From the NCBI GenBank assembly GCA_963662715.1, contig OY759724.1, forward strand, positions 1,470,001 to 1,502,000: DNA of 32,000 nt, given 5' to 3'. Each line of letters begins with the position of its first letter. The stretch's first letter is position 1. This stretch comes from Candidatus Omnitrophota bacterium. Its GTDB lineage: Bacteria > Omnitrophota > Gorgyraeia > Zapsychrales > JANLHA01. Shown piece by piece: positions 6,943-31,432 of the stretch. The translations under genes and the position numbers were made by a program. Under the pieces are notes generated by a model. It was not told the DNA's origin. It saw nothing but the letters and a program-made list of their open reading frames with translations, and searched no databases.

Positions 6943-7881
6943 ATGACAGAGTGGACCCGGCATCATTTATATGATTTGGAAGAGCTCACAAAAGAGGAAA
7001 TAGATCTTATCCTGGAAACAGCAAAATCTTTTAAGGAAGTTTCCACGAGAGACGTCAAAAAAGTCCCGGCTTTAAGAGGCAAGACCGTGGCCATGCTGTT
7101 TTTTGAGCCGTCAACCCGGACCCGGACCTCCTTTGAGCTCGCCGCCAAACGGCTTTCCGCTGACACGATTAATTTCTCCTCGGGAGGGAGCGCTTTGTCT
7201 AAAGGGGAATCCATTTTAGACACGGCGCTTAATATAGAGGCCATGAACGTGGACATGATTGTGGTCCGGCATAAATCTGCCGGGGTCCCGCATATTCTTG
7301 GCGGGGGCGTCAAGGCTTCCGTTGTTAATGCCGGTGACGGCTGTCATGCCCACCCCACCCAGGCTTTGCTGGATATATTTACGATGAAGGAAAAAAAGGG
7401 TCAGATCGCAGGATTGAAAGTCGGGATTGTCGGGGATATCCTGCATTCCCGTGTGGCCCGGTCAAACATTTGGGGGCTGACAAAACTCGGAGCTGCTGTC
7501 ACTCTTTGCGGCCCGTCAACGCTGATGCCCCCGGGGATAGAGCAATTGGGCGTGAACGTGACTTATGATCTGGATTGTGTCCTCCGGGACAGCGACGTCC
7601 TTATGCTGCTGCGCCTGCAGAAAGAACGGCAGCAGGATAAATTTCTTCCGTCCATTAGAGAATACGCCCGGGTTTTCGGCATTAATAAAGAGAAATTAAA
7701 AAAAGCGAAAAAAGATGTGCTTATCATGCATCCCGGCCCGACGAACCGCGGCGTGGAATTAACGGCGGACGTTGCTGACGGAGAATATTCCGTGATTCTT
7801 GAACAGGTGACAAACGGGGTCGCTGTGCGGATGGCTGTTATGTACCTTATGTCCGGTAAAAGGAATGTCGAGGGAGAGTAA
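6943..7881 (+). CDS. pyrB: Aspartate carbamoyltransferase catalytic subunit
   Basis: FEPSTRTRTSFE, HPTQALLD and HPGP motifs. AGAGGAG RBS precedes ATG 6943. Confidence 0.95.
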   Translation: MTEWTRHHLYDLEELTKEEIDLILETAKSFKEVSTRDVKKVPALRGKTVAMLFFEPSTRTRTSFELAAKRLSADTINFSSGGSALSKGESILDTALNIEAMNVDMIVVRHKSAGVPHILGGGVKASVVNAGDGCHAHPTQALLDIFTMKEKKGQIAGLKVGIVGDILHSRVARSNIWGLTKLGAAVTLCGPSTLMPPGIEQLGVNVTYDLDCVLRDSDVLMLLRLQKERQQDKFLPSIREYARVFGINKEKLKKAKKDVLIMHPGPTNRGVELTADVADGEYSVILEQVTNGVAVRMAVMYLMSGKRNVEGE

Positions 7882-9940: not shown

Positions 9941-10013
9941 AGAATATCCTTGTGACAGCGGTCATGTAAAGCCTTGACTTGTTATAAAAATAGATGAAGC
10001 CTTTAGCCTTATA

Positions 10014-14602: not shown

Positions 14603-15511
14603 ATGAACCTTTCAGTAAAAATCGGGACAGCGGTTTTTCCTAATCCCGTCACGGTTGCGTCCGGGACCTTCGGGCACGCCGAGAAGTATTACCGTTTGGA
14701 GGAAGTCAAAAAGCTGGGGGCTTTGATTCCCAAGACCGTCACGCTTCATGCCCAGGAAGGCAACCCGCCGCCGCGTATCGTAGAGACTCCCGCCGGAATG
14801 CTTAATGCCATCGGCATTGAGAATCCCGGCATTGATGTTTTTATCCGGCAGAAATTATCCTTGTTGCAGAATATTAACGTTCCGCTTATCATCAGCATCC
14901 TCGGGCATTCGGATGACCAGTTCCTCAAGCTTACGGAAAAGTTAAACAAGGCCGAGGGAGTCCAGGCTTTGGAACTGAACCTTTCCTGTCCGAATCTGCA
15001 GAAAAAAGTCCTGGTCGCCCAGGACCCCCGGGCGACGTCCCGGCTTGTCCAGAAGGTCAAAAAGGTTTCCCGTTACCCGGTTGTCGCGAAGCTGTCTCCC
15101 AATGTTACGGATATCACGGTTATCGCCCGGGCCGCGGCAGAGGCCGGGGCCGACGGGGTAAGCTTGATCAACACATTGACAGGCATGCAGATTGATACAA
15201 AATCCCGGCGGCCGGTTCTCGGCAATATCACCGGAGGATTAAGCGGGCCGGCGATCCGGCCGGTGGCTTTGAACATGGTTTATCAGGTCGCGCAGCGCAT
15301 CAAGATCCCGATCATCGCCATGGGCGGTATCATGAACGCTGACGATGCCCTGCAGTTTATCATGGCCGGAGCCGCGATGGTTGCCGTAGGGACCTTTAAC
15401 TTTGTCAATCCGCGCGCGCCTCTGGACGTGCTGCAGGGGATTAAGGCGTATATGAAGAAACAGAAGATTCAGGATATTCATCAACTTTGCGGGAGCGTGA
15501 TAGCGCCATGA
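14603..15511 (+). CDS. pyrD: Dihydroorotate dehydrogenase, class 1B catalytic subunit
   Basis: LELNLSCPN active-site Cys region and GGLSGPAIRP. It lies one gene (the TauE-like ORF) downstream of pyrK. Confidence 0.95.
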   Translation: MNLSVKIGTAVFPNPVTVASGTFGHAEKYYRLEEVKKLGALIPKTVTLHAQEGNPPPRIVETPAGMLNAIGIENPGIDVFIRQKLSLLQNINVPLIISILGHSDDQFLKLTEKLNKAEGVQALELNLSCPNLQKKVLVAQDPRATSRLVQKVKKVSRYPVVAKLSPNVTDITVIARAAAEAGADGVSLINTLTGMQIDTKSRRPVLGNITGGLSGPAIRPVALNMVYQVAQRIKIPIIAMGGIMNADDALQFIMAGAAMVAVGTFNFVNPRAPLDVLQGIKAYMKKQKIQDIHQLCGSVIAP

Positions 15512-16266
15512 GTGAAAAGAAACAAAAAGCCCAGGTTATTGTCGCCCTGGATGTTAATACTTTGGAAGAGGTCCGTTCCCTGGTGGTGCAGCTGGACGAC
15601 TATATTGACTGCTTTAAAGTCGGCAGCCAGCTGTTTACGTCCTGCGGCCCGGCTGCGGTTCGGTTTATCGAAGCAAGAGGGAAACGCGTTTTTCTGGATT
15701 TAAAATTTCATGATATCCCTCATACCGTTGCGCGCGCCGTTGAAGCCGCTGCGCACCTGAATGTCGCCATCGAGCGGAGTATGAGCGCTTATAAAAAGGA
15801 GCCTCCCAGGCATAAAGGATTGTTTATGTATACCCTGCATACATCCGGAGGGCCGGAGATGCTGAAAGCGGCTGTTGAAGCAGGAACGAAAGCCGCCCTG
15901 GAGATTGATGTTCCGAAACCTTTGGCGATCGGCGTAACTGTCTTGACAAGTGAACAAAAAACGGATAGTATACTCACTCAAGTTTTGCAGAAAGCTGAGT
16001 GTGCCAGGAAGGCCGGGTGTGACGGGGTGGTGGCGTCCTGCCATGAAGCCCCGGTCATTCGCCGCGAGTTCGGCCCGGACTTCATTATTGTGACGCCGGG
16101 TATCCGGCCGGCCGGCGGAGATGTTCAGGATCAGAAGAGGACCGCGACACCGCAGGAAGCGATAAAAAGCGGCAGCAGTTTCCTTGTGATCGGAAGGCCG
16201 ATCATCCGGGCGGCAGATCCCCGGCAGGCAGCGAAGCAGATATTACAGGACATCCAGGCCGTGTGA
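15508..16266 (+). CDS. pyrF: Orotidine 5'-phosphate decarboxylase
   Basis: VALDV...DLKFHDIPHTV motifs. ATG 15508 forms an ATGA overlap with the pyrD stop. Confidence 0.93.
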   Translation: MSEKKQKAQVIVALDVNTLEEVRSLVVQLDDYIDCFKVGSQLFTSCGPAAVRFIEARGKRVFLDLKFHDIPHTVARAVEAAAHLNVAIERSMSAYKKEPPRHKGLFMYTLHTSGGPEMLKAAVEAGTKAALEIDVPKPLAIGVTVLTSEQKTDSILTQVLQKAECARKAGCDGVVASCHEAPVIRREFGPDFIIVTPGIRPAGGDVQDQKRTATPQEAIKSGSSFLVIGRPIIRAADPRQAAKQILQDIQAV

Positions 16267-16445
16267 GTCATTATTTATTAATTACATAGTTAAAAAGCGG
16301 AGGGGGGAAACAACCTTATTCATGCTTAGAAAACATGACGGGGCAGGTTTCCCTTTCTTTATTAAACAGGGATTGATCAGCTTGTCTTTGAATAATTAGA
16401 GGAAGGTTTTATATTATTTATTAAAAATTACACCGGAGAAAAGAG

Positions 16446-17069
16446 ATGACAGAACGTGTTCAGGAACTGATAGACAAAATTAAAACTGAGGGCATTCAGG
16501 CTGCTGAAACGCAGGCCAAGGACATTCAGTCTCAGGCGGTTAAAAAATCCGAGGATATTATTGCTCAGGCCAAAAAGGAAGCCGAGAGTATTATGGCCGA
16601 AGCCGAAACGGACCGGCAGAAAATCGAGGAAGCAACCCGGGCCGTGTTAAAGCAAGCCTCCCGGGACATGTTGCTGCGGTTGCGGAAAGACATGCTCAGA
16701 ATGCTGGACGGGCTCGTGACCCGGAGTTTGGGGGAAGCTCTTACTCCGGAAGAACTTTCCTCCCTTATCCAGAAAGTGGCGAGCGCTTATGTTCAAGGCG
16801 ATAAGGGCGCGGATATCACTGCGACTTTAAGTGAAGAAGACCTGAATAAACTGAAGGATGGATTCTTGAAAAAATTGCAGCAGGCTTTAAAACAGCCGCT
16901 TGTTTTAAAGTCCGCGCAGAATATTCGCAAAGGCTTTACGATCAGTTTTGACCAGGGAAAGTCGTGTTTTGATTTTACGGACAAGAGCCTGGCGGAATTT
17001 CTTGGCCAGTATTTAAATGAGCAGGTGGCGCAGATTCTGCAGGAATCATTAGAAAAACAGGATGTGTAA
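16446..17069 (+). CDS. ntpE: V-type ATPase subunit E
   Basis: Charged coiled-coil N-terminus (AAETQAKDIQSQAVKKSEDIIAQAKKEAESIMAEAE) and first position in the V-ATPase operon. Confidence 0.75.
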   Translation: MTERVQELIDKIKTEGIQAAETQAKDIQSQAVKKSEDIIAQAKKEAESIMAEAETDRQKIEEATRAVLKQASRDMLLRLRKDMLRMLDGLVTRSLGEALTPEELSSLIQKVASAYVQGDKGADITATLSEEDLNKLKDGFLKKLQQALKQPLVLKSAQNIRKGFTISFDQGKSCFDFTDKSLAEFLGQYLNEQVAQILQESLEKQDV

Positions 17070-17071
17070 AG

Positions 17072-17608
17072 ATGTATTATTATTTTGCGGCCAGCCTGCC
17101 TTTTCTGGAATTCGGGGTGAAATGCCCGACTTGCCTGGAAAATTTTTTGGAGCAGAGTGAAAGACTGCTGCCGGAGCGGGACCGGAGGCTTATTGAACAG
17201 GCCCTGCTGATCGAAAAAGGGCAGGACATCAAAGCGGAGCACCGGGTCATTGCGGAATGGCAGAATTTTATGCAGGATCTCCGTAACCAATGGGTTTTGG
17301 TCAGGGCCGGTGTGCTCAAAAAAGATCCGTTGTCCTATATGCGGGGAAGCCGGACCGGCCAGGCGGCGGTTGTTGAGGTCATCAACCAGGCCCAGAAAGC
17401 GGAGGACCCGTTGTCCGGAGAAAAATTGATCGACCAGCTGCGGTGGGATAAGCTGGAAGATATCGGGCAGGGACATTTTTTTGATTTGGATTTTTTGCTG
17501 GTCTATGCTTTGAAGCTGCAGATTCTAAAACGGCTGGAGCGCATAGATTCTGTGCACGGGGAACATACCTTTCAAGAATACTGTACAACCGCATCGCGGT
17601 TGAGATAA
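17072..17608 (+). CDS. DUF2764-like V-ATPase accessory protein (subunit C-like position)
   Basis: MYYYFAASLPFLEF start and a position between E and A, as in Bacteroidetes/Chlamydia-type V-ATPase operons. Confidence 0.55.
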   Translation: MYYYFAASLPFLEFGVKCPTCLENFLEQSERLLPERDRRLIEQALLIEKGQDIKAEHRVIAEWQNFMQDLRNQWVLVRAGVLKKDPLSYMRGSRTGQAAVVEVINQAQKAEDPLSGEKLIDQLRWDKLEDIGQGHFFDLDFLLVYALKLQILKRLERIDSVHGEHTFQEYCTTASRLR

Positions 17609-17660
17609 TGGCTGGGATTCGCGGCAGGCAGACTCAGTCATAAGAAACGGAGGATGAAGC

Positions 17661-19418
17661 GTGAGTCGATCAAGAACCGGACAGGTGATAGGGGTCAACG
17701 GGAATATGGTGGCGGTTGCCTTTGCGGACCGGGTTATGCAGAACGAAGTGGCCTATGTCGTGGCAGGGCAGGAGCGTTTGAAGGCGGAGGTTATTCGTGT
17801 TAAGGGTAAACGCGCGGACCTGCAGGTCTTTGAAGACACCCAGGGGATCCGTATTCAGGATACGGTGGAGTTCACCGGGGAACTGCTGAGCGTTGAGCTG
17901 GGGCCGGGGTTGTTGACCCAGGTCTATGACGGGTTGCAGAATCCTCTCCCGGATTTAGCCGAGCAGTATGGTTTTTTTCTGAAACGGGGAGCCTATTTAA
18001 CCGCGCTTGACGATGATTCGACGTGGGAGTTCACCCCGGAGGCCAAAGCCGGGGATAAAGTCCTGGCCGGAGAAAAGCTCGGCGTTGTTCCGGAAAAGGT
18101 TTTCCAGCACTGGATCATGGTCCCTTTCCATCTCCAGGGAGAACTTGAGGTGACAGAGATTGTCGGCAAAGGCACGTATAAAGTCAAGGACACGATCGCC
18201 CGCGTGAAAGACGGACAGGGACAGGTTCATGCCGTAACCATGAAACAGACGTGGCCGGTCAAAGTTCCCATCACGGCGTATGCCCATAAAATCAAACCGA
18301 CACAGCCGCTGGTCACGAAGATCCGCATTATCGATACTCTGGTCCCGGTCGCGGTCGGAGGAACGTTCTGCACTCCGGGGCCTTTCGGCGCCGGCAAAAC
18401 AGTTTTGCAGCATTTGATCAGCCGTCATGCGGACGTGGACATCGTGATCGTCGCGGCCTGCGGGGAACGGGCCGGCGAAGTCGTTGAGCTCCTTAAAGAA
18501 TTCCCGGAACTCAAAGATCCGAAGACCGGGCAGACGCTGATGGACCGCACGATTATTATCTGTAATACCAGTTCCATGCCGGTGGCGGCCCGGGAGTCGA
18601 GCGTATATACAGCCGTGACATTAGCGGAATATTACCGGCAGATGGGAATGAATGTCTTATTGCTGGCGGATTCCACGTCCCGGTGGGCGCAGGCCATGCG
18701 GGAAATGTCCGGACGTCTGGAAGAGATCCCCGGGGAAGAAGCGTTTCCGGCCTACCTGGAAACCCGCATCGCTTCGTTTTATGAGCGCGCGGGCCTGGTT
18801 CAGCTTCATGACGGAAGTATGGGGTCCGTGACGATCGGCGGGTCGGTCTCTCCGGCCGGCGGAAATTTTGAAGAGCCGGTGACCCAGGCGACGCTGAAAG
18901 TCGTCGGCGCGTTTCACGGTTTGTCCCGCGACCGCGCGAACGCCCGCAGGTATCCCTCCATCGACCCTTTGGACAGTTGGAGCAAATACGACAGCTTTAT
19001 TGACGGCGCGAAGGTGCAGAAAGGCGTGGCGATCCTCCGCAAAGCCAGCCATGTCTCCCAGATGATGAAAGTCATCGGGGAGGAAGGGACAACGACGGAA
19101 GAGTTTATCGAGTATTTGAAAGGGGAGTTTTTTGATGCCGTGTATCTGCAGCAGAATGCTTTTGACGAGGTCGACGAAGCGACGCCGGACGAGCGGCAGA
19201 GATATATTTATGATCTGCTCGAGCAGATCATTGACCAGAAATTCAAATTTTCAGACAAAACAACGGCCCGCAGATTCTTTCAGGAACTGAGGCAGAAATT
19301 CATCAACTGGAATTCTGCCGCCTTCCAAAGCGATGAATTCCAGTCCATAGAGAAAAATATCCGGGAACAGTTAACCGCGGATACAAAGACTTTGAACAAA
19401 GAACCAGTCAGAGGTTAA
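17661..19418 (+). CDS. ntpA: V-type ATPase catalytic subunit A
   Basis: GTG start after GGAGGA. Walker [10 protein letters not shown], Walker B LLLADS and the non-homologous insert typical of A subunits. Confidence 0.95.
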
Positions 19419-19422
19419 TACG

Positions 19423-20730
19423 ATGCAAAAAGTTTACAGCCAGATTTTACAGATTGCCGGTGATGTCATTACCGTGGAAGCCGAAGACATCGCCTATGGA
19501 GAGCTTGCCGAAATCCAGACCCGCATGGGAATGTCCCTCGCCCAGGTCATCCGTTTGGACGGGAACAAGGTTTCCCTGCAGGTTTTGGCCGGCAGCCGCG
19601 GCATTTCCACGGACGATAAAGTGCGGTTTTTAAAACATCCGATGCAGGTGTCGTTTTCCGATAACCTGTTAGGCCGGATCTTTAACGGGAGCGGCGTGCC
19701 CCGGGACGGCGGCCCGTCCCTGGACGAGAACATGATCAATATCGGCGGCCCGTCCGTGAACCCTTCCAAACGCATCGTGCCCCGCAATATGATCCGGACC
19801 GGAATCCCGATGATCGATATTTTTAATTCCCTGGTGGAATCGCAGAAACTGCCGATTTTTTCCGTGGCCGGGGAGCCGTATAACCCGCTTCTGGCGAGGA
19901 TCGCTTTGCAGGCGGAAGTGGACATGATTATCCTCGGGGGGATGGGCCTGAAATATGACGACTTCCTTTTTTTCAAGGAGACGCTTGAGCAACACGGGTC
20001 CCTTTCCCGGTCCGTGATGTTCATCCATACGGCGGCCGATCCGACGGTCGAATGCCTGCTTGTCCCGGACATGAGCCTGGCTGTCGCGGAGCAGTTTGCT
20101 TTGACGGGGAAACGGGTGCTGGTGCTCCTGACCGACATGACGAATTTTGCCGACGCCTTGAAAGAGGTGGCCATCACCATGGAGCAGATCCCGTCCAACC
20201 GCGGATATCCGGGGGATTTGTACAGCCAGCTGGCCGCGCGTTATGAAAAAGCCGTGGACTTTGATACGGCCGGCTCCATCACGGTTCTGGCGGTCACGAC
20301 CATGCCGGGAGACGATGTTACCCACCCGGTGCCGGATAATACCGGATACATCACCGAGGGGCAGTTTTATTTGACCGGCGGACGCATTGAGCCTTTCGGA
20401 AGCTTAAGCCGTCTGAAGCAGCAGGTCAACGGCAAGACAAGGGCTGATCACCGGACGATTATGGACCGGATGATCCAGCTGTTTGCCGATTACCGTTCAA
20501 CGCTGGAAAAGAAATCCATGGGATTTGAAATGAGCCCCTGGGATGAAAAGCTGCTGACGTACGGACACCGTTTCGAGAATGAACTTATGGATTTGAGCGT
20601 TAACATTCCGCTGGAAGGGGCTTTGGACCTGGGGTGGCGTATCCTGGCGGATATCTTTGAGCCGGCTGAGACCGGGATAAAAGAATCTTTGCTCAAGGAG
20701 TTCTGGCCCAAAAAAGAGGCCAGTGTTTGA
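19423..20730 (+). CDS. ntpB: V-type ATPase subunit B
   Basis: Alpha/beta-family fold without a P-loop. Motifs include [18 protein letters not shown] and [12 protein letters not shown]. Confidence 0.95.
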
Positions 20731-20861
20731 TCCCCGGGCTCGCCAGGAGGAAAACGCCCGGCTGCGGAACCTGCGGTGAAGCCCTGCTGCCTTCCCGGCA
20801 GGGGAGGCGTTATAAGATAGGATGCACAGGTGTCGTTTAATACCAAATAGATATTTTAGCC

Positions 20862-21500
20862 ATGGGAAAAGTTAAATTAACAAAAGGCGAACTGAAACGC
20901 CAGCGCGACAGCTTGAAGCAGTTCCGGCACTATCTCCCGACGCTGCAGCTTAAGAAACAACAGCTGCAGATGAAAATCCTGGAGATCCGTAAGCTGCTTA
21001 AGGAGAAGGAAGCTTCCCTGGCCAGGCAGAAAGAGGAGATCGGCCGCTGGGTGGGCCTGCTTTCCGATTCTTTGCTGCCGGAGACGGTGGACCTCCGGTC
21101 ATGGCTTATCCCGGATCATCAGGATGTTCTGATCGGCACAATGAATATTGCCGGTGCCGATGTCCCGGTCTTAAAAGAGATTAAGTTTAAGGTCCCGGAT
21201 TATGATTTGTTCGTTGTGCCGTTTTGGGTGGACCGCGGGCTTGCGGATTTAAAGAACTACCTGCACGATTTTATCGAGATAGGGATTATTAAAGAGCAAA
21301 TTCATGTCCTGCAGAAGGAATTGCGGGTGACAACCCAGCGGGTCAACTTATTTGAAAAAGTCAAAATCCCCGAGTGCCTGGAACATATCCGGGTGATCCG
21401 TATTTACCTGGGGGATCAGCAGTCGAACGCCGTCGGGATCAGTAAAGTCGCAAAGAAGAAAATCGAGGCGGCAGCCGAATTGGAAGCCGCCGCGGCGTAA
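20862..21500 (+). CDS. ntpD: V-type ATPase subunit D
   Basis: LTKGELKRQRDSLKQFRHYLPTLQLKKQQLQ coiled-coil N-terminus and operon position. Confidence 0.85.
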   Translation: MGKVKLTKGELKRQRDSLKQFRHYLPTLQLKKQQLQMKILEIRKLLKEKEASLARQKEEIGRWVGLLSDSLLPETVDLRSWLIPDHQDVLIGTMNIAGADVPVLKEIKFKVPDYDLFVVPFWVDRGLADLKNYLHDFIEIGIIKEQIHVLQKELRVTTQRVNLFEKVKIPECLEHIRVIRIYLGDQQSNAVGISKVAKKKIEAAAELEAAAA

Positions 21501-21516
21501 AAGGATAGAGGCCAGA

Positions 21517-23262
21517 ATGATTGTTCCGATGAAAAAAGTTTTTCTGATTGTTCAGAACCGGGATGTTGAGCCTGCGCTCAAACGTTTGCGTGAGCTGGGT
21601 GTCCTGCACGTGGCTCATTTGCGCCTCCCCAAGAGCAGCGGGATTAACCAGCTGAAAGACGATATTAAGCTTTTAGAGCAGGCGGTTAACTATTTGACGC
21701 ATGAACATAAAAACCCTCAGCAAGTCGAGGCGCCGGACTGGAAGGAAACGGCTGATGTTGTTCTCGGCCTGGCGGCGCTGATGGACCGTGACCGGGAAGG
21801 AATTGCCAAGCGCCAGGTGCAGATTGAACAGTGGGAGCCCTGGGGGGATTTCAGCCTGGAAGATATCGAACAGCTGCGCGCCAAAGGACTGAAAGTCGAA
21901 CTTGTGGAAGTCCCGGAGAAAGACGTCTCTTCTGCGCCCGAGGGAGTCATCCTTGCGCCGGTCTTTGTCAAACACAAAATCGCCCGGTGTATGGCCTTGT
22001 CTTATAAAGACGGGGATATCCCCTATAAAATCCTGCCGCTTCCCCATCAGCGGCTGCGTCGGATTAAAGAAGAACAGGGGCGGCTGCGGAAGCGGATCAA
22101 AAAGGCTCATCAGCAGATGTTTGACAACAGCAGGTATCTCGACCATTTGAAAAAAGTTTTGGCCCGGCTGAAAGACGATCTTGACTTTAAAACGGTTTTG
22201 GAAGGGCGGGGCGGGGACAAACAGCTGAGTGTTATCCAGGGGTTTTGTCCGCAGGATTTGACCCCGCAGCTGGAATCATCGGCCAGGACAGAACAATGGG
22301 GTGTTCTGTTTGAAGACCCGAAGGAAGAAGACCAGGTGCCGACTTTGTTGAGAAATCCCAAATGGGTGGAGACGGTGAACCCCTTGTTTGATTTGACAAA
22401 CATCATCCCCGGATACCGGGAGCTGGATGTCAGCCCGTTCTTCCTGGTGTTTTTTTCTTTGTTCGTCGGGATTTTAATCGGCGATGCCGGGTACGGCACG
22501 CTGATATTGCTGGCGGCGGTTTTTTTCCGGCATAAACTCAGGAAAAAGAATCAGGAGACAGACAAGGTGAAGCTGGCTTTCCGGCTGGGGTTTTTGCTGT
22601 GCGGGTGTGTGATCGCGTGGGGCGTGTTGACCGGCACGTATTTCGGGCAAGCCTGGCTGACCGGAAAGATTAAACCTTTGATTCCCTGGTTAACAAATGA
22701 AAAGAATGTTCAGCTTGTATGCTTTATCATCGGAGGCGTGCACCTGAGCATCGCGCACGGCTGGCGTGCCGTTTTAAAAATGCCCCGGCTACACTTTCTT
22801 TCCGATGTCGGATGGATATTATTCATATGGGGGATGTTTTTCTGGGTTAAGTTTTTTGTGCTTGGCAGCAGCCTGCCTTCTTTTGCTAACTGGCTGGCAG
22901 GGGCGGGCATGGTGCTGGTTTTATTCATGACTTGTCCTAACAGGAATCCGTTGATTTCTTTGCGGGATCTCGGTGTGAACATCGTATTTGATTTTATCAG
23001 TACTTTTACAGATATTATTTCTTATATACGCCTTTTTGCTGTGGGACTGGCGACGGTGGCGGTGGCAGACGCCGCCAATTCCATGGGGCCTGTATGGATT
23101 ATTATTTTATACACCGTGAATATCATTTTGGCTGTTCTGGCTTTGGTGGTGCACGGCATACGGTTAAATACATTAGAGTTTTCCACGCATTTGGGATTGC
23201 AGTGGGCCGGGTTTGAATACAGCCCTTTTAAAAAGAAAAATTTTTTGAAAAAGTCCGTTTAA
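21517..23262 (+). CDS. ntpI: V-type ATPase subunit I (a-subunit, stator/ion channel)
   Basis: About 300 aa soluble N-terminal half, then multiple TM helices including the conserved R in ISYIRLFAVGLA. Confidence 0.85.
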   Translation: MIVPMKKVFLIVQNRDVEPALKRLRELGVLHVAHLRLPKSSGINQLKDDIKLLEQAVNYLTHEHKNPQQVEAPDWKETADVVLGLAALMDRDREGIAKRQVQIEQWEPWGDFSLEDIEQLRAKGLKVELVEVPEKDVSSAPEGVILAPVFVKHKIARCMALSYKDGDIPYKILPLPHQRLRRIKEEQGRLRKRIKKAHQQMFDNSRYLDHLKKVLARLKDDLDFKTVLEGRGGDKQLSVIQGFCPQDLTPQLESSARTEQWGVLFEDPKEEDQVPTLLRNPKWVETVNPLFDLTNIIPGYRELDVSPFFLVFFSLFVGILIGDAGYGTLILLAAVFFRHKLRKKNQETDKVKLAFRLGFLLCGCVIAWGVLTGTYFGQAWLTGKIKPLIPWLTNEKNVQLVCFIIGGVHLSIAHGWRAVLKMPRLHFLSDVGWILFIWGMFFWVKFFVLGSSLPSFANWLAGAGMVLVLFMTCPNRNPLISLRDLGVNIVFDFISTFTDIISYIRLFAVGLATVAVADAANSMGPVWIIILYTVNIILAVLALVVHGIRLNTLEFSTHLGLQWAGFEYSPFKKKNFLKKSV

Positions 23263-23275
23263 TAAGGAGAAGAAA

Positions 23276-23722
23276 ATGGAACAAACTTTTTTGACGCAAT
23301 TAAGTGACCTGGGTGTGGCAGCAGCGGTGTCCATGGCGGCCATGGGGTCTGCTTTGGGGACCGGGGTCGCGGGGATGTCGGCTGTGGGGGCCTGGAAAAA
23401 ATGTTTTGCGCAAAGTAAAACTGCTCCGTTTATGCTGGTGGCTTTTGTCGGCGCGCCTTTGTCACAAACGATTTACGGTATGATCCTTATGGGCAAAATC
23501 GCCACAGCCGCGCAAGCCGGACAGTATTATTGGAGTATCGGCCTCTTGGGCGGCGCGGCCATGGGAATGTCGGCCTGGATGCAGGGGAAGGCAGGAGCGG
23601 GTGCGGCAGACGCTTTAGCTGAGACAGGTAAAGGGTTCACGAATTATATGATGGTTCTGGGGATCATCGAAACCGTGGCCCTGTTTGTCATGGTCTTTTT
23701 GCTGGGGAAGGTCGGAGCGTAA
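23276..23722 (+). CDS. ntpK: V-type ATPase proteolipid subunit K (double-hairpin c subunit)
   Basis: 148 aa with four Gly/Ala-rich TM helices and a single carboxylate in helix 4 (GIIETVALF). Confidence 0.85.
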   Translation: MEQTFLTQLSDLGVAAAVSMAAMGSALGTGVAGMSAVGAWKKCFAQSKTAPFMLVAFVGAPLSQTIYGMILMGKIATAAQAGQYYWSIGLLGGAAMGMSAWMQGKAGAGAADALAETGKGFTNYMMVLGIIETVALFVMVFLLGKVGA

Positions 23723-23793: not shown

Positions 23794-23870
23794 GGGCGAT
23801 TAGCTCAGCTGGTTAGAGCGTCTGACTTACATTCAGGAGGTCGAGGGTTCGATCCCTTCATCGCCCACCA
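23794..23870 (+). tRNA. tRNA-Val (anticodon UAC), CCA encoded
   Basis: Acceptor GGGCGAT/ATCGCCC and D arm GCTC..GAGC. The anticodon stem TCTGA/TCAGG closes the loop CTTACAT. The T arm is GAGGG-TTCGATC-CCTTC, followed by ACCA. Confidence 0.92.
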
Positions 23871-23932: not shown

Positions 23933-24010
23933 GGGCCCGTGGTGTAGCTTGGTTAACATATCTGACTGTCGATCAGAAGACCGCGAGTTCAAATCTCGTC
24001 GGGCCCGCCA
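23933..24010 (+). tRNA. tRNA-Asp (anticodon GUC), CCA encoded
   Basis: Acceptor GGGCCCG/CGGGCCC and D stem GTGT/ACAT. The anticodon stem TCTGA/TCAGA closes the loop CTGTCGA. The T arm is GCGAG-TTCAAAT-CTCGT, followed by GCCA. Confidence 0.92.
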
Positions 24011-24016
24011 AATAGC

Positions 24017-24050
24017 AAAAAGGACTTCCCCAGAAGGGGAAGTCCTTTTT
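24017..24050. terminator. Bidirectional intrinsic terminator
   Basis: AAAA-AGGACTTCCCC-agaa-GGGGAAGTCCT-TTTT: a perfect 11-bp stem flanked by an A-run and a T-run. Confidence 0.8.
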
Positions 24051-24059
24051 GCATGTAAG

Positions 24060-24361
24060 CCGTGCTTGACAGTTTGAACTCGTATCCTGCGAAGCAGGAC
24101 GGGTTCGATTACGGGTTACCTTAAATAATAATTTAGGGAAAGCCGGAATCCAGGATGCCGCGAAGCGGCACCGCCAATCGAGTCGGGGACCTTATCTGAC
24201 AGGTCCACAGTTTGATTTGCCAGCGAAGCTACGGGTTTGATTGCGGCTTGCCGCAACACATAAGGTGCAGGGTTGATCCATAGCATACCGAAGCACCTTG
24301 TTTCAATATGATCCCCCGTAATCAATATCCCTCCTTTTACCACGAGGCAGGAGGGCTTTTT
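24060..24361 (+). ncRNA. Candidate structured non-coding RNA or repeat-hairpin element of unknown class
   Basis: No credible ORF. There are at least 7 hairpins, including three GCGAAGC-centred ones (24089, 24160, 24223) and a CUUG-loop hairpin (24240-24255). It ends in CCCTCCT..AGGAGGG plus CTTTTT (24329-24361). Strand and ends are uncertain. Confidence 0.35.
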
Positions 24362-24502
24362 CTTGTCCCTTCATTTGTCCCCAATACCCCTTTTTGCGCC
24401 ACGAAAATCCACGCTCTGGCACGGGAACATTTCAAGAGCGCTTGTAATGCAAAAAAATCGTATTTATGTGAAAAAAGGTCAGTTTTTGGGCGTATCGGGC
24501 TA

Positions 24503-24882: not shown

Positions 24883-27582
24883 ATGCCAATAAATGATTCA
24901 TTACTAAACCGGCTTTATTCATCAGCAGCTTTGAATACGGATGATTTTAAGCTTTTAAGAAAGCCCAACAATCATCCTTATGCAGCCATTTTTCGACAGA
25001 ATTTTTTTAGTCCAGATTCATGGCGTCAGTCAATTCTGCGAAAATTGAAGGATCGAATTCAATTCTCTAAGGGCGGTGCTTTCTTGGTTAGTGGTTATCG
25101 GGGCACAGGGAAAAGTACCTTTTTGAATTATTTGCTTTATGAGTTGGAACCTAATGATAATAATCCGTCTGATCAGGAAAAGGGAAAGGAAACAATAAAA
25201 TTCATTTCAGCAACCATCAACTTAAGTAGTTTTTCTTTTGAAAATTTAAAGTACGATCTTATTAATTTGATTGCTATTCAATTAGAAGACATGTGGCCAG
25301 AGGGGCAAGATAGAAGGTCGTTAAAATCCCTTCAAGAAGCACTTTTTTTTGCGCAGAGTAAAAGTGATACTAGAAAAGAGCTCAATCGACTGAATATAAC
25401 GCCGAATCTAGAGTTCCTTTCTTTGAAAGTTGGTGGAGAAGTTGAAAGAGAAAAGGTCTCGGAAGCTGTATTGGTTTCTTCGTTAAAGGATAATTTGTAT
25501 TACGTTGAAAAATTGCTTAAGGAGGCTTTGAAAGACTTAAGTTTGGCCAATAAAAGGCTGATTTTTGTTTTGGACGAATTAGACAAACTCCCTCTTTTTA
25601 CTCGTGAATCTGAAATGGTTCGTTCAGGGGATTCGGCGGTAAAGGATGAACAACCCCGCTACACGGATTATATGGATCCAAGAAATATACGATCATTACT
25701 CGAGATGCTTTCGAATTTGAAGAATATATTTTTTGAAAGTGGTGTTATTTTTATCCTTGTCGTTAATAAGAATGTTTTTGATGTCCTAAAATCTAATTCA
25801 AGTCATGAAGATCTTCTGATTCATTTAATAACTGATGCCGTCTATATCCCATGCTACAGGAAAAATGAAATGAGGCTTTCTACTCTTTTTCCAGTTAAAG
25901 TACTTACTTCTAATAGGCATGAACATAAGAGCATATTAGAAAACTTTGAACTTTGTCTCTATTATGAATGCTCTGGGAATTTGCGTGTCTTTTTCCAGAT
26001 TCTCGCTAAGAAAATTAAAGATAAGGAATTAGTTATCACAGCTAATGAAGCGCATTATTTGAAGCAAAAGGTAAAGATATATGAGTTGAATGAACTTATT
26101 TATAACTATGTGTACGATGATGACCCGTCCGCATTCTCCCGCCTTTATGAATTTTTCACAAGAATATATAATTGGATGTTGTCTCGCCCAGAGAATAATG
26201 CTGCTATAACCGAAGAATCTTTCGGTTGGGAGGACGGGTGCCGTTGGGGGAAAATAATTTCTAGCTATTGTCGAGGCTTTGATAATAAACAAGATGAAGT
26301 TACCCGAAATTTAGAAGGATTTTGGCAAGAAGGAGTTGCGTTTAATAACTTTGAAGCTTTATTTACAATACTCAAAGAGAACGATCTTCTTGATAATTTT
26401 CCTGCAACAAATTATCTGATTCGTCGTCTTACTGATTTTAGCAAAATTATTGATGAAAAACGCTTTTTAACTATTGAGCGAGTTGTTCGCAACATGGATT
26501 TTCAAGAGTTTGAGTTTTCTGACACAATTGGCCGGTATCTTATTTATGTGTTGATTCCTTTAAATATAGCAATTCTTTACAACAATGGTGTGTTGGATAT
26601 AAAAAATAATTATCTCCAGTACACATATAGTCATACGCCGCGCCTACCGGAGTATCATTCTGGTTACGAATATGAACTTAAAGGTGACCTTCGGGGCGCC
26701 TTTGATCTGTACACAAAATATATTGCAGATAACCCTACTGATCTGGAGGCGCATAGGAAAAAGTTAACTGCTCTCTATTACATGTTAAAGTTTGGATTTT
26801 ATGACCCAGGAATTGATATTTTCTTGCACTGGGGTGATAGTGTTCAAAAGATGCTTCAAAATAATGTTTTGAATAGTCGCAGGGAAAAACCTTATTTAAG
26901 TTGCATTTTGTTTTTTCAATATCTTCTAAATCAATTTCAGAGATGGGAAAAAGAGACCAATAAAGACAATAAAAATAAAAGTTTTGAAAAAGATAATTTT
27001 GATGTGTTAGAAAAAATGGAGATGTGTTCTGCTGATTTAGGGGCAAGAGTCGAACCTAAAATATGGCATTTTTTCTTTTTGTATTGGACGAGAAATTATT
27101 TTGCTGCCTTTAATGTATTGAATAATGTTGTACGTGAGCAAAGAGACCCATTTCTATTTCTTTTAAATGGATTTATTTTAACACAGATAGGTTTTTATGA
27201 ACGAGCTTGGGAAAATATAAGAAAAGGCATGGAATGTCCCGGGAATTGGTTTATTCAAACACTGACACTGGTCGGGTTGTGGTCCTTAATTTGTAATTTA
27301 CGTGACAATACTGAGGCTCATAATTTTTTGCTTCATCTTAGAGGAGATCCTTGCATTGAAAATTTTGTCCGAAACATCGGCCGACCAGAGAAGCCTCTTT
27401 TAACTGAGTGCAGAGCTATGGCAGATATCTTGATTTTTTTGAATAAGCCTAAAGATGAAGTTCAATATTTCATCGGTCAACAAGAAATGATTCAAAGAAA
27501 ATTTCAGGGTTCTGCAAAATATGCGCAATTTGAGAGAATATATCAACACTTCCTTGCCCGAGTTGTAGGGCGGCTTGGATGA
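24883..27582 (+). CDS. Large P-loop (AAA+/STAND-like) NTPase with a helical, TPR-like C-terminal region and no recognisable effector domain
   Basis: 899-aa ORF in AT-rich DNA with a GAGG RBS. Walker A GYRGTGKST (aa 71-79), Walker B LIFVLDELD (aa 226-234), ILVVNKN, and a sensor-2-like CSGNLRVFF. TPR-like segment YELKGDLRGAFDLYTKYIADNPTDLEAH. Confidence 0.8.
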   Translation: MPINDSLLNRLYSSAALNTDDFKLLRKPNNHPYAAIFRQNFFSPDSWRQSILRKLKDRIQFSKGGAFLVSGYRGTGKSTFLNYLLYELEPNDNNPSDQEKGKETIKFISATINLSSFSFENLKYDLINLIAIQLEDMWPEGQDRRSLKSLQEALFFAQSKSDTRKELNRLNITPNLEFLSLKVGGEVEREKVSEAVLVSSLKDNLYYVEKLLKEALKDLSLANKRLIFVLDELDKLPLFTRESEMVRSGDSAVKDEQPRYTDYMDPRNIRSLLEMLSNLKNIFFESGVIFILVVNKNVFDVLKSNSSHEDLLIHLITDAVYIPCYRKNEMRLSTLFPVKVLTSNRHEHKSILENFELCLYYECSGNLRVFFQILAKKIKDKELVITANEAHYLKQKVKIYELNELIYNYVYDDDPSAFSRLYEFFTRIYNWMLSRPENNAAITEESFGWEDGCRWGKIISSYCRGFDNKQDEVTRNLEGFWQEGVAFNNFEALFTILKENDLLDNFPATNYLIRRLTDFSKIIDEKRFLTIERVVRNMDFQEFEFSDTIGRYLIYVLIPLNIAILYNNGVLDIKNNYLQYTYSHTPRLPEYHSGYEYELKGDLRGAFDLYTKYIADNPTDLEAHRKKLTALYYMLKFGFYDPGIDIFLHWGDSVQKMLQNNVLNSRREKPYLSCILFFQYLLNQFQRWEKETNKDNKNKSFEKDNFDVLEKMEMCSADLGARVEPKIWHFFFLYWTRNYFAAFNVLNNVVREQRDPFLFLLNGFILTQIGFYERAWENIRKGMECPGNWFIQTLTLVGLWSLICNLRDNTEAHNFLLHLRGDPCIENFVRNIGRPEKPLLTECRAMADILIFLNKPKDEVQYFIGQQEMIQRKFQGSAKYAQFERIYQHFLARVVGRLG

Positions 27583-27601
27583 GAGGAGGAAATTAATTGA
27601 T

Positions 27602-29569
27602 ATGCGTGAACGTCGGCTAAAATCGTTAGAGGAATTCATTGCAACAAAAAATGCTTTAATTTGTCTGTATTATGGAGAAAGCAATCAAGGAAAATCAGCT
27701 TTTGTCCGAGACTTTCTTCTTGAGAAAAGAAACGTTTATCAAGTGTGTGAAATTTGTGCAAGCCATGACCAACCCAACATGGTTATTGAACATTTAAGTA
27801 GCATCTTGAATCTTTTGCTTAACAAATCAGACTTAGAAGATTTTGGTAAATATAAAAACCATGTGGATAATTTAAATTTTATAATTCTCGATATAAGAAG
27901 GCTGTTTTACCAAGGAAGCTTAAAGAAAAAGATAGTTTTTTTGATTGATAACGCAGAAACGATTTTTTCGCTTCATCATTGCTTGGGTTCTGACTCTTGG
28001 CAACAGCATGTCATGGAACAGTGGGAGGTTTTTCTCCAGAAACTGACAGAGTTAAATTGTGAAGAATTCGATGTGAGAATTGTTCTCATCGCGAATAAAG
28101 ATATTTTGGAACTTACTCGTTTAAGACCGTATTTGGTTAGAGTCGAGCATTCTAAAGAAAAAATTAGTGATGAATCGAGGAAAGTAGTAATACGTCTTCA
28201 TGAAATCCAAGAAGCCTCTGATAAAGGCGAAAAAATTAATTGTGATGATGGCGATAAAGATCGTCTTGTAAAAAGCGGAAATGCCGAAGTTGTCTTAAGA
28301 TTGACCCCTGATATAAAAGAATTTATGGCAAAGAAGAAAAACGAGTTGATCGAAAATATTAAAAATATTGCAAGTATGAAAGAACAAGAAATAACAACTG
28401 ATGATAATTTGGAATTTATACGAGGAACCTATGAATTTTTTCATTTTATACAAGTGTTAGAGAAGATGAGCTCAGAAGAAAGATACAAAAAAGTCGTTCC
28501 TGATTGTTATGATTGTCTTTGCGAAATCCTGTGTACACCGAAAACAGAGTCGCATTGTTCAGACATCGGAGATACTTTACGGCAGTACGGTTATGGCAAG
28601 CTGTTGTTGAGTATGATTTGTGGCTGTCAACAATATGTTAAGAAATCGCCGAACAACAAAAACAATCGGATGAGGTTAAAAATTTTAGAGGGAAATGTGC
28701 TTTATTATGAGAATGATTATGTTAAAGCCTTAAAGTGTTATTCTGCTGTGACGTCAAATACTAAAATGGGCTTTTTGGCTAAATACGAAATTGTTCGGAC
28801 CCTGCATCAGTTAAATGAACAACGATGGTGGGATGTTTTGTCTGAACAAGAAATAATTTCCCTGCAAGAGATACTTGAGAAATTAAACAAAAAATATAAC
28901 GGCGATTCTAATCAGGAAAAATTCTTTTTGCTTTATAATAATAAATTTGATGATTCCCAAAAAGCTGCATTACTTTTGCCGTTAATGAAGAAAATGATAA
29001 GCCAAATGAAGGAGAAATCTGATTTGAAAAATATTATTTCTCAAGAGAGGATCGATGCAGCTAAAACGATATATTTAAAGAGTGAAAACAAATTGGAAGA
29101 AATAAAAAGCGTTTGTGAAGATTTTCAATTGTTTAAGGACTACAAAAATTCTTATTGGCGAGACTATATTTTTTTTCACCAGATTGACTTGTTTTGTAAT
29201 CTTTTTGAAAAGCAACAAGAAGAAATTTTTGGTTGGTGCAAAAAAATTCGGAATAATCAAAGTAATCAAGAAAAATTATGGGAGTCTCTTTTAAAAAAGG
29301 TGAAAATCTTGATAGAAAAGACTGAAAAGGATTCACAAGCCGGGCTAGGTGATAAAATTTGGCGTGATGCTAAATATGGTGATTTGTATAGTAGGATATC
29401 CTTGATTAAATGGAAGAAAGAAGCGGAATTGGATAAGGCTGAATTGCCCCAAGTTATAAAAAAGGCTGAAGAATCCGCAGCTAAATATCGTGTTTTAGGT
29501 CATAATCAAAAAGCTGAACGGGTCCTTAATCAAATAAGTCAATTAATGCAAGTTCAAGCAACTTTGTAA
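27602..29569 (+). CDS. Second P-loop (AAA+/STAND-like) NTPase with a Lys/Glu-rich helical, TPR-like C-terminus
   Basis: Walker A GESNQGKS (aa 25-32 from ATG 27602), Walker B IVFLIDNAE and IVLIANKD. TPR-like LEGNVLYYENDYVKALKCYSAV. GAGGAGG at 27583-27589 spans the upstream stop. The alternative TTG start at 27575 would overlap ORF1 by 8 nt. Confidence 0.78.
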   Translation: MRERRLKSLEEFIATKNALICLYYGESNQGKSAFVRDFLLEKRNVYQVCEICASHDQPNMVIEHLSSILNLLLNKSDLEDFGKYKNHVDNLNFIILDIRRLFYQGSLKKKIVFLIDNAETIFSLHHCLGSDSWQQHVMEQWEVFLQKLTELNCEEFDVRIVLIANKDILELTRLRPYLVRVEHSKEKISDESRKVVIRLHEIQEASDKGEKINCDDGDKDRLVKSGNAEVVLRLTPDIKEFMAKKKNELIENIKNIASMKEQEITTDDNLEFIRGTYEFFHFIQVLEKMSSEERYKKVVPDCYDCLCEILCTPKTESHCSDIGDTLRQYGYGKLLLSMICGCQQYVKKSPNNKNNRMRLKILEGNVLYYENDYVKALKCYSAVTSNTKMGFLAKYEIVRTLHQLNEQRWWDVLSEQEIISLQEILEKLNKKYNGDSNQEKFFLLYNNKFDDSQKAALLLPLMKKMISQMKEKSDLKNIISQERIDAAKTIYLKSENKLEEIKSVCEDFQLFKDYKNSYWRDYIFFHQIDLFCNLFEKQQEEIFGWCKKIRNNQSNQEKLWESLLKKVKILIEKTEKDSQAGLGDKIWRDAKYGDLYSRISLIKWKKEAELDKAELPQVIKKAEESAAKYRVLGHNQKAERVLNQISQLMQVQATL

Positions 29570-30037: not shown

Positions 30038-30061
30038 AAACCACGGCCATGAGGCCGTGGA
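30038..30061 (+). repeat. IS200 left-end hairpin
   Basis: AAACCACGGCC-atga-GGCCGTGGA, perfect 8-bp stem. Confidence 0.8.
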
Positions 30062-30105
30062 TGAAGCGTTTCCGAGGTCTTGGTTGCGTATGATACAATG
30101 GGTGC

Positions 30106-30534
30106 ATGAGATATTTGAAGCAAGGACACACAGTTTACTATGCCAGATACCATATTGTCATTTGTACAAGATATAGGCGAAAGATATTGCGATGGGGTTC
30201 GGCGGAGTATGTCAAAAGATGCGTTTTGGGAGTGATGAGACGGTATCCTGAGATCATCATTGAAAAAGTAAATACAGATTTAGATCATATGCATCTTTTG
30301 GCATCAATTCCGCCGAAGATGGCTGTAAGTCATGCAGTAAATCTGATTAAGAGTAACACAGCAAAGCTGATGAGGCGGCGATATAAGTTTTTAGACAAGA
30401 TGTATGTGAAAAAGGCAGGGATATGGTCAGCAGGGTATTTTGTGTCAACGGTTGGAGCCGACGAAGAATCGATAAAGCGATACATCGAATATCAAGGCCG
30501 GGAAGACCGAGGACAAACGCAGATAGAATTTTAG
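30106..30534 (+). CDS. tnpA: IS200/IS605-family Y1 (HUH) transposase TnpA
   Basis: YHIVICTRYRRKIL, HUH motif LDHMHLL and a catalytic Tyr region ESIKRYIEYQ, 142 aa. Confidence 0.9.
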   Translation: MRYLKQGHTVYYARYHIVICTRYRRKILRWGSAEYVKRCVLGVMRRYPEIIIEKVNTDLDHMHLLASIPPKMAVSHAVNLIKSNTAKLMRRRYKFLDKMYVKKAGIWSAGYFVSTVGADEESIKRYIEYQGREDRGQTQIEF

Positions 30535-30562
30535 CTGCGTTTGCACAGTCAAAATAGTTAAG

Positions 30563-30586
30563 AAACCACGGCCGTGAGGCCGTGGA
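30563..30586 (+). repeat. IS200 right-end hairpin
   Basis: AAACCACGGCC-gtga-GGCCGTGGA, 23/24 identical to the left-end copy. Confidence 0.8.
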
Positions 30587-30667: not shown

Positions 30668-31432
30668 ATGAAAATATATTTCTATCTTTCTTTAACTCCT
30701 GAATCTTTTATCGCTTCTATGCTACCGCCCATGGATTTTGGTTCTTATTTAGCCGTCGGAACACAAAAACGTGCCAGTGGCCAGGTTATATTTTTTGAGA
30801 TAGAAGAACCAACGAATGATTCAAGTTTCAACTTGGATAATATTAAGAGCCGCTGTATTAATCATTCAAACGGAGAACCAAAACATTCGGTATATGGATC
30901 ATGTTATCGTGTCCTTGAAAAAATACCTTTGAGTGACATTAAAGATCTTTATCTAGTTACTCGAGATGGAAAACCTTTGTGTCTTCAGCAAAGCGAGATA
31001 CTTCCTGAAGTTTCTCAGAATTATTATTTATATCAAGAAATTTGTCCCGTGCATCCAAGTGTTGTTAGCACTTTAAATCCTTTGGAATTCAGTAAATATC
31101 TTACTGACGGGAGTCAAAATATTTATTTTCCTAAGATTTGTTTTGTTGATTTGCACCTTGGTGAGTTGCGTGAAGACCCAAAATTTGGAGAAGTACGTAA
31201 TCTGCCATATCAAAATGTAGAACATCTGCGAGATTGTCTCATTCAGCTTAAAAATAATCCAAAGAAATCCACTACAACAGTTGATCGTATTAGTTCACAG
31301 TCATTTCCATTTCGCACTATAGAGAACGGAATTTTTCTCGGGAGCAAGGAAAATCTCCTGTTCTATCCTTTTCCATCCAAAAAAGATCTTCAGGGCAAGT
31401 ATTATGATTGGTGGCGCTCTGCCTCTATGTGA
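30668..31432 (+). CDS. Hypothetical protein, 254 aa, no recognised domain
   Basis: TGGAGGA RBS 4 nt before the ATG. A long ORF in stop-codon-rich AT-rich DNA, with soluble-looking composition (MKIYFYLSLTPESFIASMLPPMDFGSYLAVG...YYDWWRSASM). Confidence 0.7.
   Translation: MKIYFYLSLTPESFIASMLPPMDFGSYLAVGTQKRASGQVIFFEIEEPTNDSSFNLDNIKSRCINHSNGEPKHSVYGSCYRVLEKIPLSDIKDLYLVTRDGKPLCLQQSEILPEVSQNYYLYQEICPVHPSVVSTLNPLEFSKYLTDGSQNIYFPKICFVDLHLGELREDPKFGEVRNLPYQNVEHLRDCLIQLKNNPKKSTTTVDRISSQSFPFRTIENGIFLGSKENLLFYPFPSKKDLQGKYYDWWRSASM

Follow-up and report, generated by a model that had tools for sequence, protein, structure and literature searches.

A KAP-Family NTPase Gene and a Putative Pseudo-NTPase Partner Form a Rare Two-Gene Cassette in an AT-Rich Genomic Island of an Omnitrophota Bacterium

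INTRODUCTION

What kind of system is encoded by two large adjacent genes that share an AT-rich island and in which no effector can be read? The genes, here called ORF1 and ORF2, occupy positions 24883 to 29569 of a 32,000-nucleotide (nt) stretch of the genome of Candidatus Omnitrophota bacterium (GenBank assembly GCA_963662715.1, contig OY759724.1, positions 1,470,001 to 1,502,000 of the forward strand), hereafter the window. An original prediction, made from the letters of the sequence, took both products for P-loop NTPases joined to helical repeats and proposed that they constitute an undescribed, defense-like two-gene system. Here we ask whether the two genes belong together, what each encodes, and which role best explains them.

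RESULTS

ORF1 and ORF2 are a co-inherited two-gene cassette. The lengths given in the original prediction (899 amino acids [aa] for ORF1 and 655 for ORF2, counted from the ATG at 27602) and the 19-nt gap between the genes were confirmed, the TGA stop of ORF1 being at 27580 to 27582. The list of open reading frames gives a TTG at 27575 as the start of ORF2, but it is the ATG that matches the alignment of all homologs. The GAGGAGG Shine-Dalgarno-like site of ORF2, said to span the stop of ORF1, in fact lies directly after it (Table 1).

A word-indexed search of 5.8 billion clusters yielded three homologs of ORF1, at 31 to 34% identity; a search of this kind with ORF2, either as a single sequence or as a three-sequence profile, returned the query itself only. 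The gene directly 3' of each of the three ORF1 homologs is a homolog of ORF2 (BLASTP, 1e-28, 3e-23, and 2e-16). An exhaustive phmmer search with ORF2 against 1.84 billion representatives found eight relatives only, five of which were new beyond those reached by synteny, and all five of their contigs carry a KAP-type ORF1 homolog immediately upstream. As both proteins have homologs at 21 to 34% identity in eight other loci, they are not chance open reading frames. Contigs of other carriers are referred to below, where necessary, by locus names (L001, L004, L009, L012, L013, L015, and L016).

Conserved adjacency in other genomes had been named beforehand as a point on which the proposal should be judged. 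Across the nine distinct loci the order of the genes is constant, with junctions from -14 nt (an overlap) to +28 nt, and in an all-against-all BLAST comparison of these loci ORF1 and ORF2 were the sole shared genes. Their pairwise identities co-vary across loci (r = 0.86; Mantel P of about 2e-4), with ORF2 evolving faster (mean pairwise identity of 25.5%, versus 35% for ORF1). Because of the constant order and junctions, the absence of any other shared gene, and the co-varying identities, the pair is a co-inherited cassette, and its genes are probably translationally coupled. The family is very rare and tiny, being confined to about ten lineages, all of whose hosts are uncultured.

One candidate for a conserved third gene was rejected: the 254-aa ORF of the window and the ORFs of 214 to 296 aa found downstream of the pair in L009, L013, and L015 are mutually unrelated. 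The 254-aa ORF (30668 to 31432, + strand), which lies just past the IS200 element and had been considered a possible part of the system, forms a singleton cluster without a match in Pfam, PADLOC, or NCBIfam and does not accompany the pair at other loci.

Table 1. Positions of the two genes, their conserved motifs, and adjacent features in the window
Feature	Position	Strand	Description
ORF1	24883-27582	+	ATG start, 899 aa; KAP-family P-loop NTPase, helical lid, predicted winged-helix-like domain, TPR array
ORF1 Walker A, GYRGTGKST (aa 71-79)	25093-25119	+	G71, Y72, R73, G74, G76, and K77 invariant in 9 full-length homologs
ORF1 Walker B, LIFVLDELDK (aa 226-235)	25558-25587	+	D231, E232, L233, D234, and K235 invariant in 10/10 sequences
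ORF1 strand FESGVIFILVVNKN (aa 284-297)	25732-25773	+	N295, sensor-1-like position; E285, S286, V293, V294, N295, and K296 invariant
ORF1 lid motif, CSGNLRVFFQ (aa 363-372)	25969-25998	+	R368, sensor-2-like position; N366, R368, F371, and Q372 invariant
ORF1 predicted winged-helix-like domain (aa ~485-580)	26335-26622	+	Predicted H-E-H-H-hairpin pattern, pLDDT 60-71
ORF1 invariant motif NFPATNYLIRRLTDF in winged-helix-like domain	26395-26439	+	N505, P507, N510, Y511, R514, R515, and D518 invariant
ORF1 TPR array (aa ~589-830)	26647-27370	+	PDB profile search, Pfam TPR matches in homologs, helix pairs in model
Shine-Dalgarno-like site of ORF2, GAGGAGG	27583-27589	+	Immediately 3' of ORF1 stop; 12 nt upstream of ATG 27602
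ORF2	27602-29569	+	655 aa; N-terminal decayed P-loop domain (aa ~1-185), then predicted all-helical TPR-like region
ORF2 Walker-A-like GESNQGKS (aa 25-32)	27674-27697	+	Canonical in window copy, decayed across family
ORF2 Walker-B-like IVFLIDNAE (aa 111-119)	27932-27958	+	Asp then Asn; no adjacent acidic residue
ORF2 IVLIANKD (aa 160-167)		+	Quoted in original prediction; present
ORF2 conserved TPR-like motif RLKILEGNVLYYENDYVKALKCY (aa 358-380)	28673-28741	+	R358, L362, G364, N365, Y369, A376, and Y380 invariant in 9 sequences
ORF2 conserved C-terminal motif IWRDAKYGDL (aa 586-595)	29357-29386	+	W587, R588, and A590 invariant in 9 sequences
tRNA-Val(TAC)	23794-23870	+	ARAGORN, Rfam
tRNA-Asp(GTC)	23933-24010	+	ARAGORN, Rfam; just upstream of GC drop
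IS200-type element, Y1 transposase only	30041-30585 (transposase, 30106-30534)	+	Pfam Y1_Tnp, 1.6e-28; without TnpB

ORF1 is a KAP-family NTPase with a TPR array. ORF1 can be assigned to a described family. Its residues 62 to 236 match the Pfam family KAP_NTPase (PF07693) with 29.4 bits, against a curated cut-off of 20, and 9 of the 10 members of the ORF1 family match it, the best at 3.3e-13. All of the motifs quoted in the original prediction are present (GYRGTGKST, LIFVLDELD at aa 226 to 234, ILVVNKN at aa 291 to 297, and CSGNLRVFF at aa 363 to 371), and the family as a whole has an invariant Walker A motif (SGYRGxGK[TS]), Walker B motif (LDELDK), VVNK strand, and GNPRxxFQ lid. N295 in the VVNK strand, by analogy with Cdc6 and RdrA (PMC9994260), probably occupies the sensor-1 position, and R368 in the lid motif is likely to be at the sensor-2 position. 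Of the two proteins, ORF1 is the conserved one, and its catalytic site is intact as judged by the invariance of its motifs.

In an AlphaFold2 (AF2) model of ORF1 of moderate quality (pLDDT 58), the alpha/beta core with the P-loop is followed by a helical lid, a winged-helix-like unit, and then helix pairs. The model has a predicted strand at aa 289 to 294 and places the lid motif in the helical region beyond the P-loop core. The winged-helix-like unit, modeled as helix-strand-helix-helix-hairpin, carries the invariant motif NYxIRRLTDF; this predicted topology, together with structural matches to ORC, Cdc6, and RdrA, suggests a winged-helix-like domain. The C-terminal part is a true tetratricopeptide repeat (TPR) array: in a profile search against PDB it matched an engineered TPR protein (4.1e-10) and APC7 (1.9e-7), and TPR families of Pfam match between 3 and 6 of the 10 homologs.

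The best Foldseek match of ORF1 in PDB is the RdrA ring of RADAR (2e-4 over 703 columns, with a TM score of 0.17 to 0.23), followed by SAMD9, ORC/Cdc6, NLRP9, and TPR proteins of the APC and the BBSome. RdrA also tops a sequence profile search with the N-terminal 580 residues (5e-5), over a match of about 40 residues around the P-loop only. The PADLOC matches of ORF1 are weak (mad8, PifA, and PDC-M16A; best E values of 1e-5 to 1e-4) and, for the window copy, extend only from Walker A to the middle of the NTPase domain, as with mad8 positions 22 to 101 of 314. An NCBIfam scan of ORF1 returned nothing useful, the orc1/cdc6 model scoring at an E value of 0.1. The Pfam NACHT and nSTAND models score below their cut-offs (NACHT, E value of 0.2 and 11.9 versus 26.7 bits; nSTAND_NTPase5, E value of 0.087 and 13.1 versus 34 bits).

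No hydrophobic segment or transmembrane helix was found in ORF1 of the window, which is thus predicted to be a soluble member of the KAP clade. Two orthologs differ in this respect: that of L012 (L012:169-3138) carries an insertion of two strongly hydrophobic, transmembrane-like helices, situated after Walker A and before Walker B, while the called start of that of L001 (L001:10001-12889) adds an N-terminal transmembrane-like helix. As such helices are absent from the window copy and from all orthologs other than these two, membrane anchoring is variable within the ORF1 family.

ORF2 is best read as a paralog-derived pseudo-NTPase partner. ORF2 and its eight homologs match no family in Pfam, PADLOC, NCBIfam, or PDB; the window copy alone gives weak matches to ATPase_2 and AAA_22 (1e-3). 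A weak Pfam TPR_2 match (0.022) was also recorded for the window copy. By these searches ORF2 and its relatives are an orphan family with about nine members. The three motifs attributed to ORF2 (GESNQGKS, IVFLIDNAE, and IVLIANKD) are present in the window copy, but the reading of the pair as two NTPases goes too far for ORF2, whose P-loop has the canonical form GxxxxGK[ST] in only 4 of 9 members. It is altered in another four (GKSDTRKS, GKQNTQKS, APKNSDKS, and APMNKKIS) and absent from the L009 homolog, with the lysine retained in seven of the nine. The Walker-B-like aspartate is kept in eight, and the residue after it is an asparagine or histidine in all nine. ORF2 would be better called a pseudo-NTPase because its Walker A motif is decayed and no acidic residue follows the Walker B aspartate.

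The N-terminal domain of ORF2 is, with moderate confidence, a paralog of the NTPase domain of ORF1. When the six members with both the lysine and the first glycine were used, hhalign aligned the two domains with 82% probability (E value of 1e-5), over a stretch that runs from a helix and a strand through the P-loop to a second helix and strand and takes in the next helix, with NMVIE or NLKFE. With all nine members the relationship is weak, at probabilities of 1% for the full-length ORF2 and ORF1 families and 7% for the N-terminal domain of ORF2, and this weighs against paralogy.

The remainder of ORF2 is predicted to be all helical and repeat-like. The nine-sequence alignment contains two TPR-like conserved motifs, RLKILxGNxxYYxxxxxYxxALxCY and TWRxAR...GD, and the invariant polar residues N59, E63, D321, R358, N365, R483, and R588; no histidine or cysteine is invariant in it. 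The single-sequence AF2 model (pLDDT 42) is too poor for use, and its Foldseek hits, weak TPR proteins, are uninformative.

The cassette looks horizontally acquired. The original prediction placed the pair in an AT-rich island next to tRNA genes and an insertion sequence, and this island is real. The first ~24 kb of the window have a GC content of about 0.50 and carry housekeeping functions (GlmS, a pyr operon preceded by a PyrR leader, Fpg, and an operon for a V-type ATPase). The B subunit of this V-type ATPase belongs to a 90%-identity cluster in which every named member comes from Candidatus Omnitrophota. At roughly 24.4 kb, just beyond tRNA-Val and tRNA-Asp, the GC content drops to about 0.34, and it stays at this level until the window ends. 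A search of the window for an att-like repeat of the 3' end of tRNA-Asp gave none. An IS200-type Y1 transposase gene lies 0.5 kb downstream of ORF2 and is bracketed by near-identical hairpins, CCACGGCC-N4-GGCCGTGG, at 30041 to 30060 and 30566 to 30585; its exact protein sequence is missing from a collection of 15 billion proteins.

In 5 of the 7 loci with usable flanks the pair has a lower GC content than its flanks (0.34 versus 0.50 in the window, 0.39 versus 0.51 in L013, 0.27 versus 0.44 to 0.49 in L016, 0.54 versus 0.62 in L004, and 0.36 versus 0.47 in L015); pair and flanks are equal in L001 and L009. The neighborhood is different at every locus and consists mostly of metabolic genes, with occasional mobile or addiction-type neighbors (IS200 in the window, a DDE transposase in L009, and HicB with PDDEXK_3 in L015). 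Hence, the cassette looks horizontally acquired, and it is not demonstrably part of defense islands.

DISCUSSION

Our results suggest that ORF1 and ORF2 make up a mobile, NTP-driven two-subunit switch, for which the most likely role is conflict, i.e., immunity against phages or mobile elements; we hold this tentatively, at somewhat less than an even chance. A conflict role is favored because of the protein family of ORF1, the patchy distribution of the pair, and its foreign base composition, and the function as a whole is something that we infer. In the mechanism that we envisage, the two proteins would be co-translated and would form a hetero-oligomer, in which ORF1 would be the ATP-hydrolyzing motor and assembly platform. 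ORF2 would be a nonhydrolyzing partner that confers specificity, as a sensor or adaptor, or that provides an output of an unrecognized kind, much as an RdrA ring docks on RdrB or as the partners act in sensor/helper NLR pairs and iSTAND systems. Because no enzymatic effector is visible, we propose that the output may be an assembly that forms in an NTP-dependent way and either sequesters its target or remodels it. With the orthologs whose ORF1 has transmembrane helices, this output could act at the membrane.

KAP-family NTPases have only recently been validated as anti-phage proteins, and those joined to regions that have no known function give Walker B-dependent protection against phages (PMC13552941). 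ORF1 fits this family, to which PifA of the F plasmid belongs, in its profile score and its intact Walker A and B motifs. The L012 ortholog even has the hallmark helices within the NTPase domain, an insertion typical of many, although not all, KAP members (PMC13552941). As in the EF_KAP-type proteins, the NTPase of ORF1 is joined to a long region without a known effector. In contrast to typical members, ORF1 of the window has no transmembrane helix and carries both a TPR array and a domain predicted to be winged-helix-like. The KAP anti-phage proteins that have been described, moreover, are encoded by single genes (PMC13552941), whereas ORF1 always travels with a second large gene, apparently that of a decayed paralog.

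Several observations weigh against a conflict role. As the original prediction had stated, no nuclease, TIR, SIR2, protease, helix-turn-helix (HTH), or transmembrane effector was matched in ORF1 or ORF2, and no fused effector or adaptor of the EAD or Death-like families was found in either protein. No PADLOC system matched: ORF2 had zero hits, and those of ORF1 were weak and limited to the P-loop. The inference of a defense role from genomic context found no support in the neighborhoods: ten uncharacterized flank proteins from six loci gave no PADLOC hit, most neighbors of the pair are housekeeping genes, and collections of phages, plasmids, and viral contigs contained no homologs. With no flank hits and housekeeping neighbors, the usual defense-island signal is absent from this small sample. 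To these points may be added the quality of the structural models, moderate for ORF1 and unusable for ORF2, and the weak homology between the two NTPase domains when every ORF2 member is included.

The absence of an effector and of nearby defense genes, together with the mostly metabolic flanks, would suit a cellular function. It is possible, although we consider it unlikely, that the cassette is a non-immune, NTP-dependent regulator or scaffold, with ORF1 as a switch resembling MalT/LAL or Kidins220, its TPRs binding a cellular ligand or protein, and ORF2 as an adaptor. MalT-type regulators share the layout of an NTPase followed by TPRs, and both the window host and at least one other carrier belong to the Omnitrophota. 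Such a role might be connected with the host-attached way of life of that phylum. However, output domains such as an HTH or LuxR are missing from both proteins, and the C-terminal LuxR/GerE HTH of MalT/LAL proteins is lacking from ORF1, ORF2, and every homolog. Neither window protein has a hydrophobic segment fit for a signal or transmembrane helix. The changing neighborhoods and the foreign-looking GC content in 5 of 7 loci also speak against such a function, and a lineage-wide cellular role would not be expected to be so extremely rare and patchy.

A conflict role could be exerted in a different way if ORF2 itself were the effector. RADAR consists of an AAA+ protein with a helical C terminus and a large partner; rings of RdrA dock on RdrB, and the helical C-terminal half of RdrA is the presumed sensor (PMC9994260). 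Among solved proteins, RdrA comes nearest to ORF1, in structure as well as in sequence; both are Cdc6-like ATPases of about 900 aa with a helical C-terminal half, and in both systems the gene of a large partner follows (PMC9994260). ORF2 might thus have a new fold and act as a cryptic enzyme or as a toxin, gated by a ring of ORF1, and its invariant polar residues, which lie outside the P-loop, could form an active site. Against this, ORF2 matches no deaminase or other enzyme in Pfam, PADLOC, NCBIfam, or PDB, it has no invariant histidine or cysteine, and its conserved motifs read as TPR-like helices; we therefore regard a RADAR-like arrangement as distinctly unlikely. The similarities to RdrA-type rings have clear limits for ORF1 as well, in that the sequence match to RdrA is confined to the P-loop, no RdrA or RADAR model of PADLOC hits it, and its C-terminal half is built of true TPRs and not of the helical lobe specific to RdrA. 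As RdrB is an adenosine deaminase and ORF2, like its eight homologs, is not, the pair is not RADAR.

The comparison with STAND proteins and NLRs, on which the original prediction was built, may hold for the predicted layout of ORF1 but not for its NTPase. The order of NTPase, helical region, putative winged-helix-like domain, and repeat array, as taken from the AF2 model, would be that of Avs, bNACHT, and SAMD9, and both SAMD9 and NLRP9 turn up as structural matches. In its workings ORF1 may therefore resemble a STAND or Cdc6-type switch. The NACHT and nSTAND scores, in contrast, are far below cut-off, the domain falls in the KAP clade, and the pair lacks the N- or C-terminal effector of STAND immune sensors. 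The partnership of an intact NTPase and a P-loop-decayed protein has parallels of its own. In paired plant NLRs, the P-loop of the sensor is dispensable. Inactive STAND components (iSTAND) are present in predicted conflict systems (PMC7159879), although the MoxR-vWA genes of those systems are not found near our pair. A more specific version of the conflict role, and one that we think rather unlikely, is that the cassette is either a bacterial KAP-clade counterpart of the sensor/helper NLR pairs, in which ORF2 would recognize the invader and license oligomerization of ORF1, with immunity carried out through NTP-driven sequestration or remodeling and no enzymatic effector, or a system in which ORF1 rings gate a new-fold enzyme, as in RADAR.

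Active and inactive subunits also occur together elsewhere; in ORC, an active AAA+ subunit typically stands beside an inactive one. ORF1 shares with ORC/Cdc6 initiators the order of AAA+-like core, lid, and (as predicted for ORF1) winged helix, and ORC2, ORC4, and Cdc6 are among its best structural matches, with a Foldseek probability of 1.0 but modest E values (1e-3 to 2e-3). The cassette might thus serve the maintenance of the island that carries it, an AT-rich segment beside tRNA genes with an insertion sequence, with ORF1 as an ORC/Cdc6-type initiator or partition-like DNA-binding ATPase and ORF2 as its inactive paralogous subunit. This is improbable. The nine loci have no conserved integrase, replication, or partition genes next to the pair, the collections searched hold no plasmid or phage copies, and the window has no att-like repeat of a tRNA end. 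A long TPR array would be unusual for an initiator, and the P-loop domain is of the KAP type.

Known systems were also considered as the identity of the pair. Avs, PifA, MADS, and other PADLOC systems were rejected, as no PADLOC system matched, and the models of PifA, MADS mad8, and PDC-M16A did not match ORF1 over their full length. The statement in the original prediction that no named system fits the pair therefore stands. The KAP/STAND-like NTPase module of the cassette is of a known kind.

The cassette is a clean minimal case, in which a KAP/Cdc6-like motor with a TPR array is locked to a co-evolving and probably decayed paralog, with no visible effector. If the cassette is immune in function, then the active-plus-decayed NTPase pairing of plant NLR pairs and ORC would extend to bacterial KAP systems, and the question would arise of how immunity proceeds without an enzyme. 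It is also a candidate accessory system for the Omnitrophota, a phylum in which the content of mobile and defense genes is poorly known.

OTHER FEATURES OF THE WINDOW AND OF RELATED LOCI

Between tRNA-Asp and the AT-rich island lies a segment of ~300 nt with a host-like GC content (24050 to 24375, + strand) that may be an unannotated structured small RNA. Its minimum free energy is -117.4 kcal/mol, compared with -95.4 ± 4.8 kcal/mol for shuffled sequences (z = -4.6; 0 of 100 shuffles), and it has three GCGAAGC hairpin loops and, at its 3' end, a hairpin followed by a T-run (24346 to 24375). An Rfam scan of this segment found no family at the gathering score or at an E value of ≤1.

Upstream of the pair in L009, genes for an HSP70-like ATPase, a TerB-domain protein, and an M48 peptidase stand in a row, followed by the DDE transposase (L009:121-3545 and 6048-7550). 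The three may make up a stress or conflict module of their own; PADLOC gave no hit with the TerB-domain protein, the one member of the three that was scanned. In L015, a V-type ATPase operon begins about 9 kb downstream of the pair (L015:15125-15834), and in the window such an operon (15487 to 23722) ends about 1.1 kb upstream of it. The proximity may be coincidental, as no sequence-level synteny was detected.

The pyrimidine operon of the window is preceded by a PyrR-binding leader (6269 to 6379, + strand; Rfam RF00515, 57.1 bits versus a gathering score of 54), which stands before the genes for aspartate carbamoyltransferase and dihydroorotase. Further along, positions 10001 to 11000 have an AT skew of -0.33 and a GC skew that runs opposite to that of the remaining window. 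This anomaly is contained in an ORF (10014 to 11816) for a 600-aa TPR protein, which has a T-rich N-terminal half and solid TPR matches at its C terminus.

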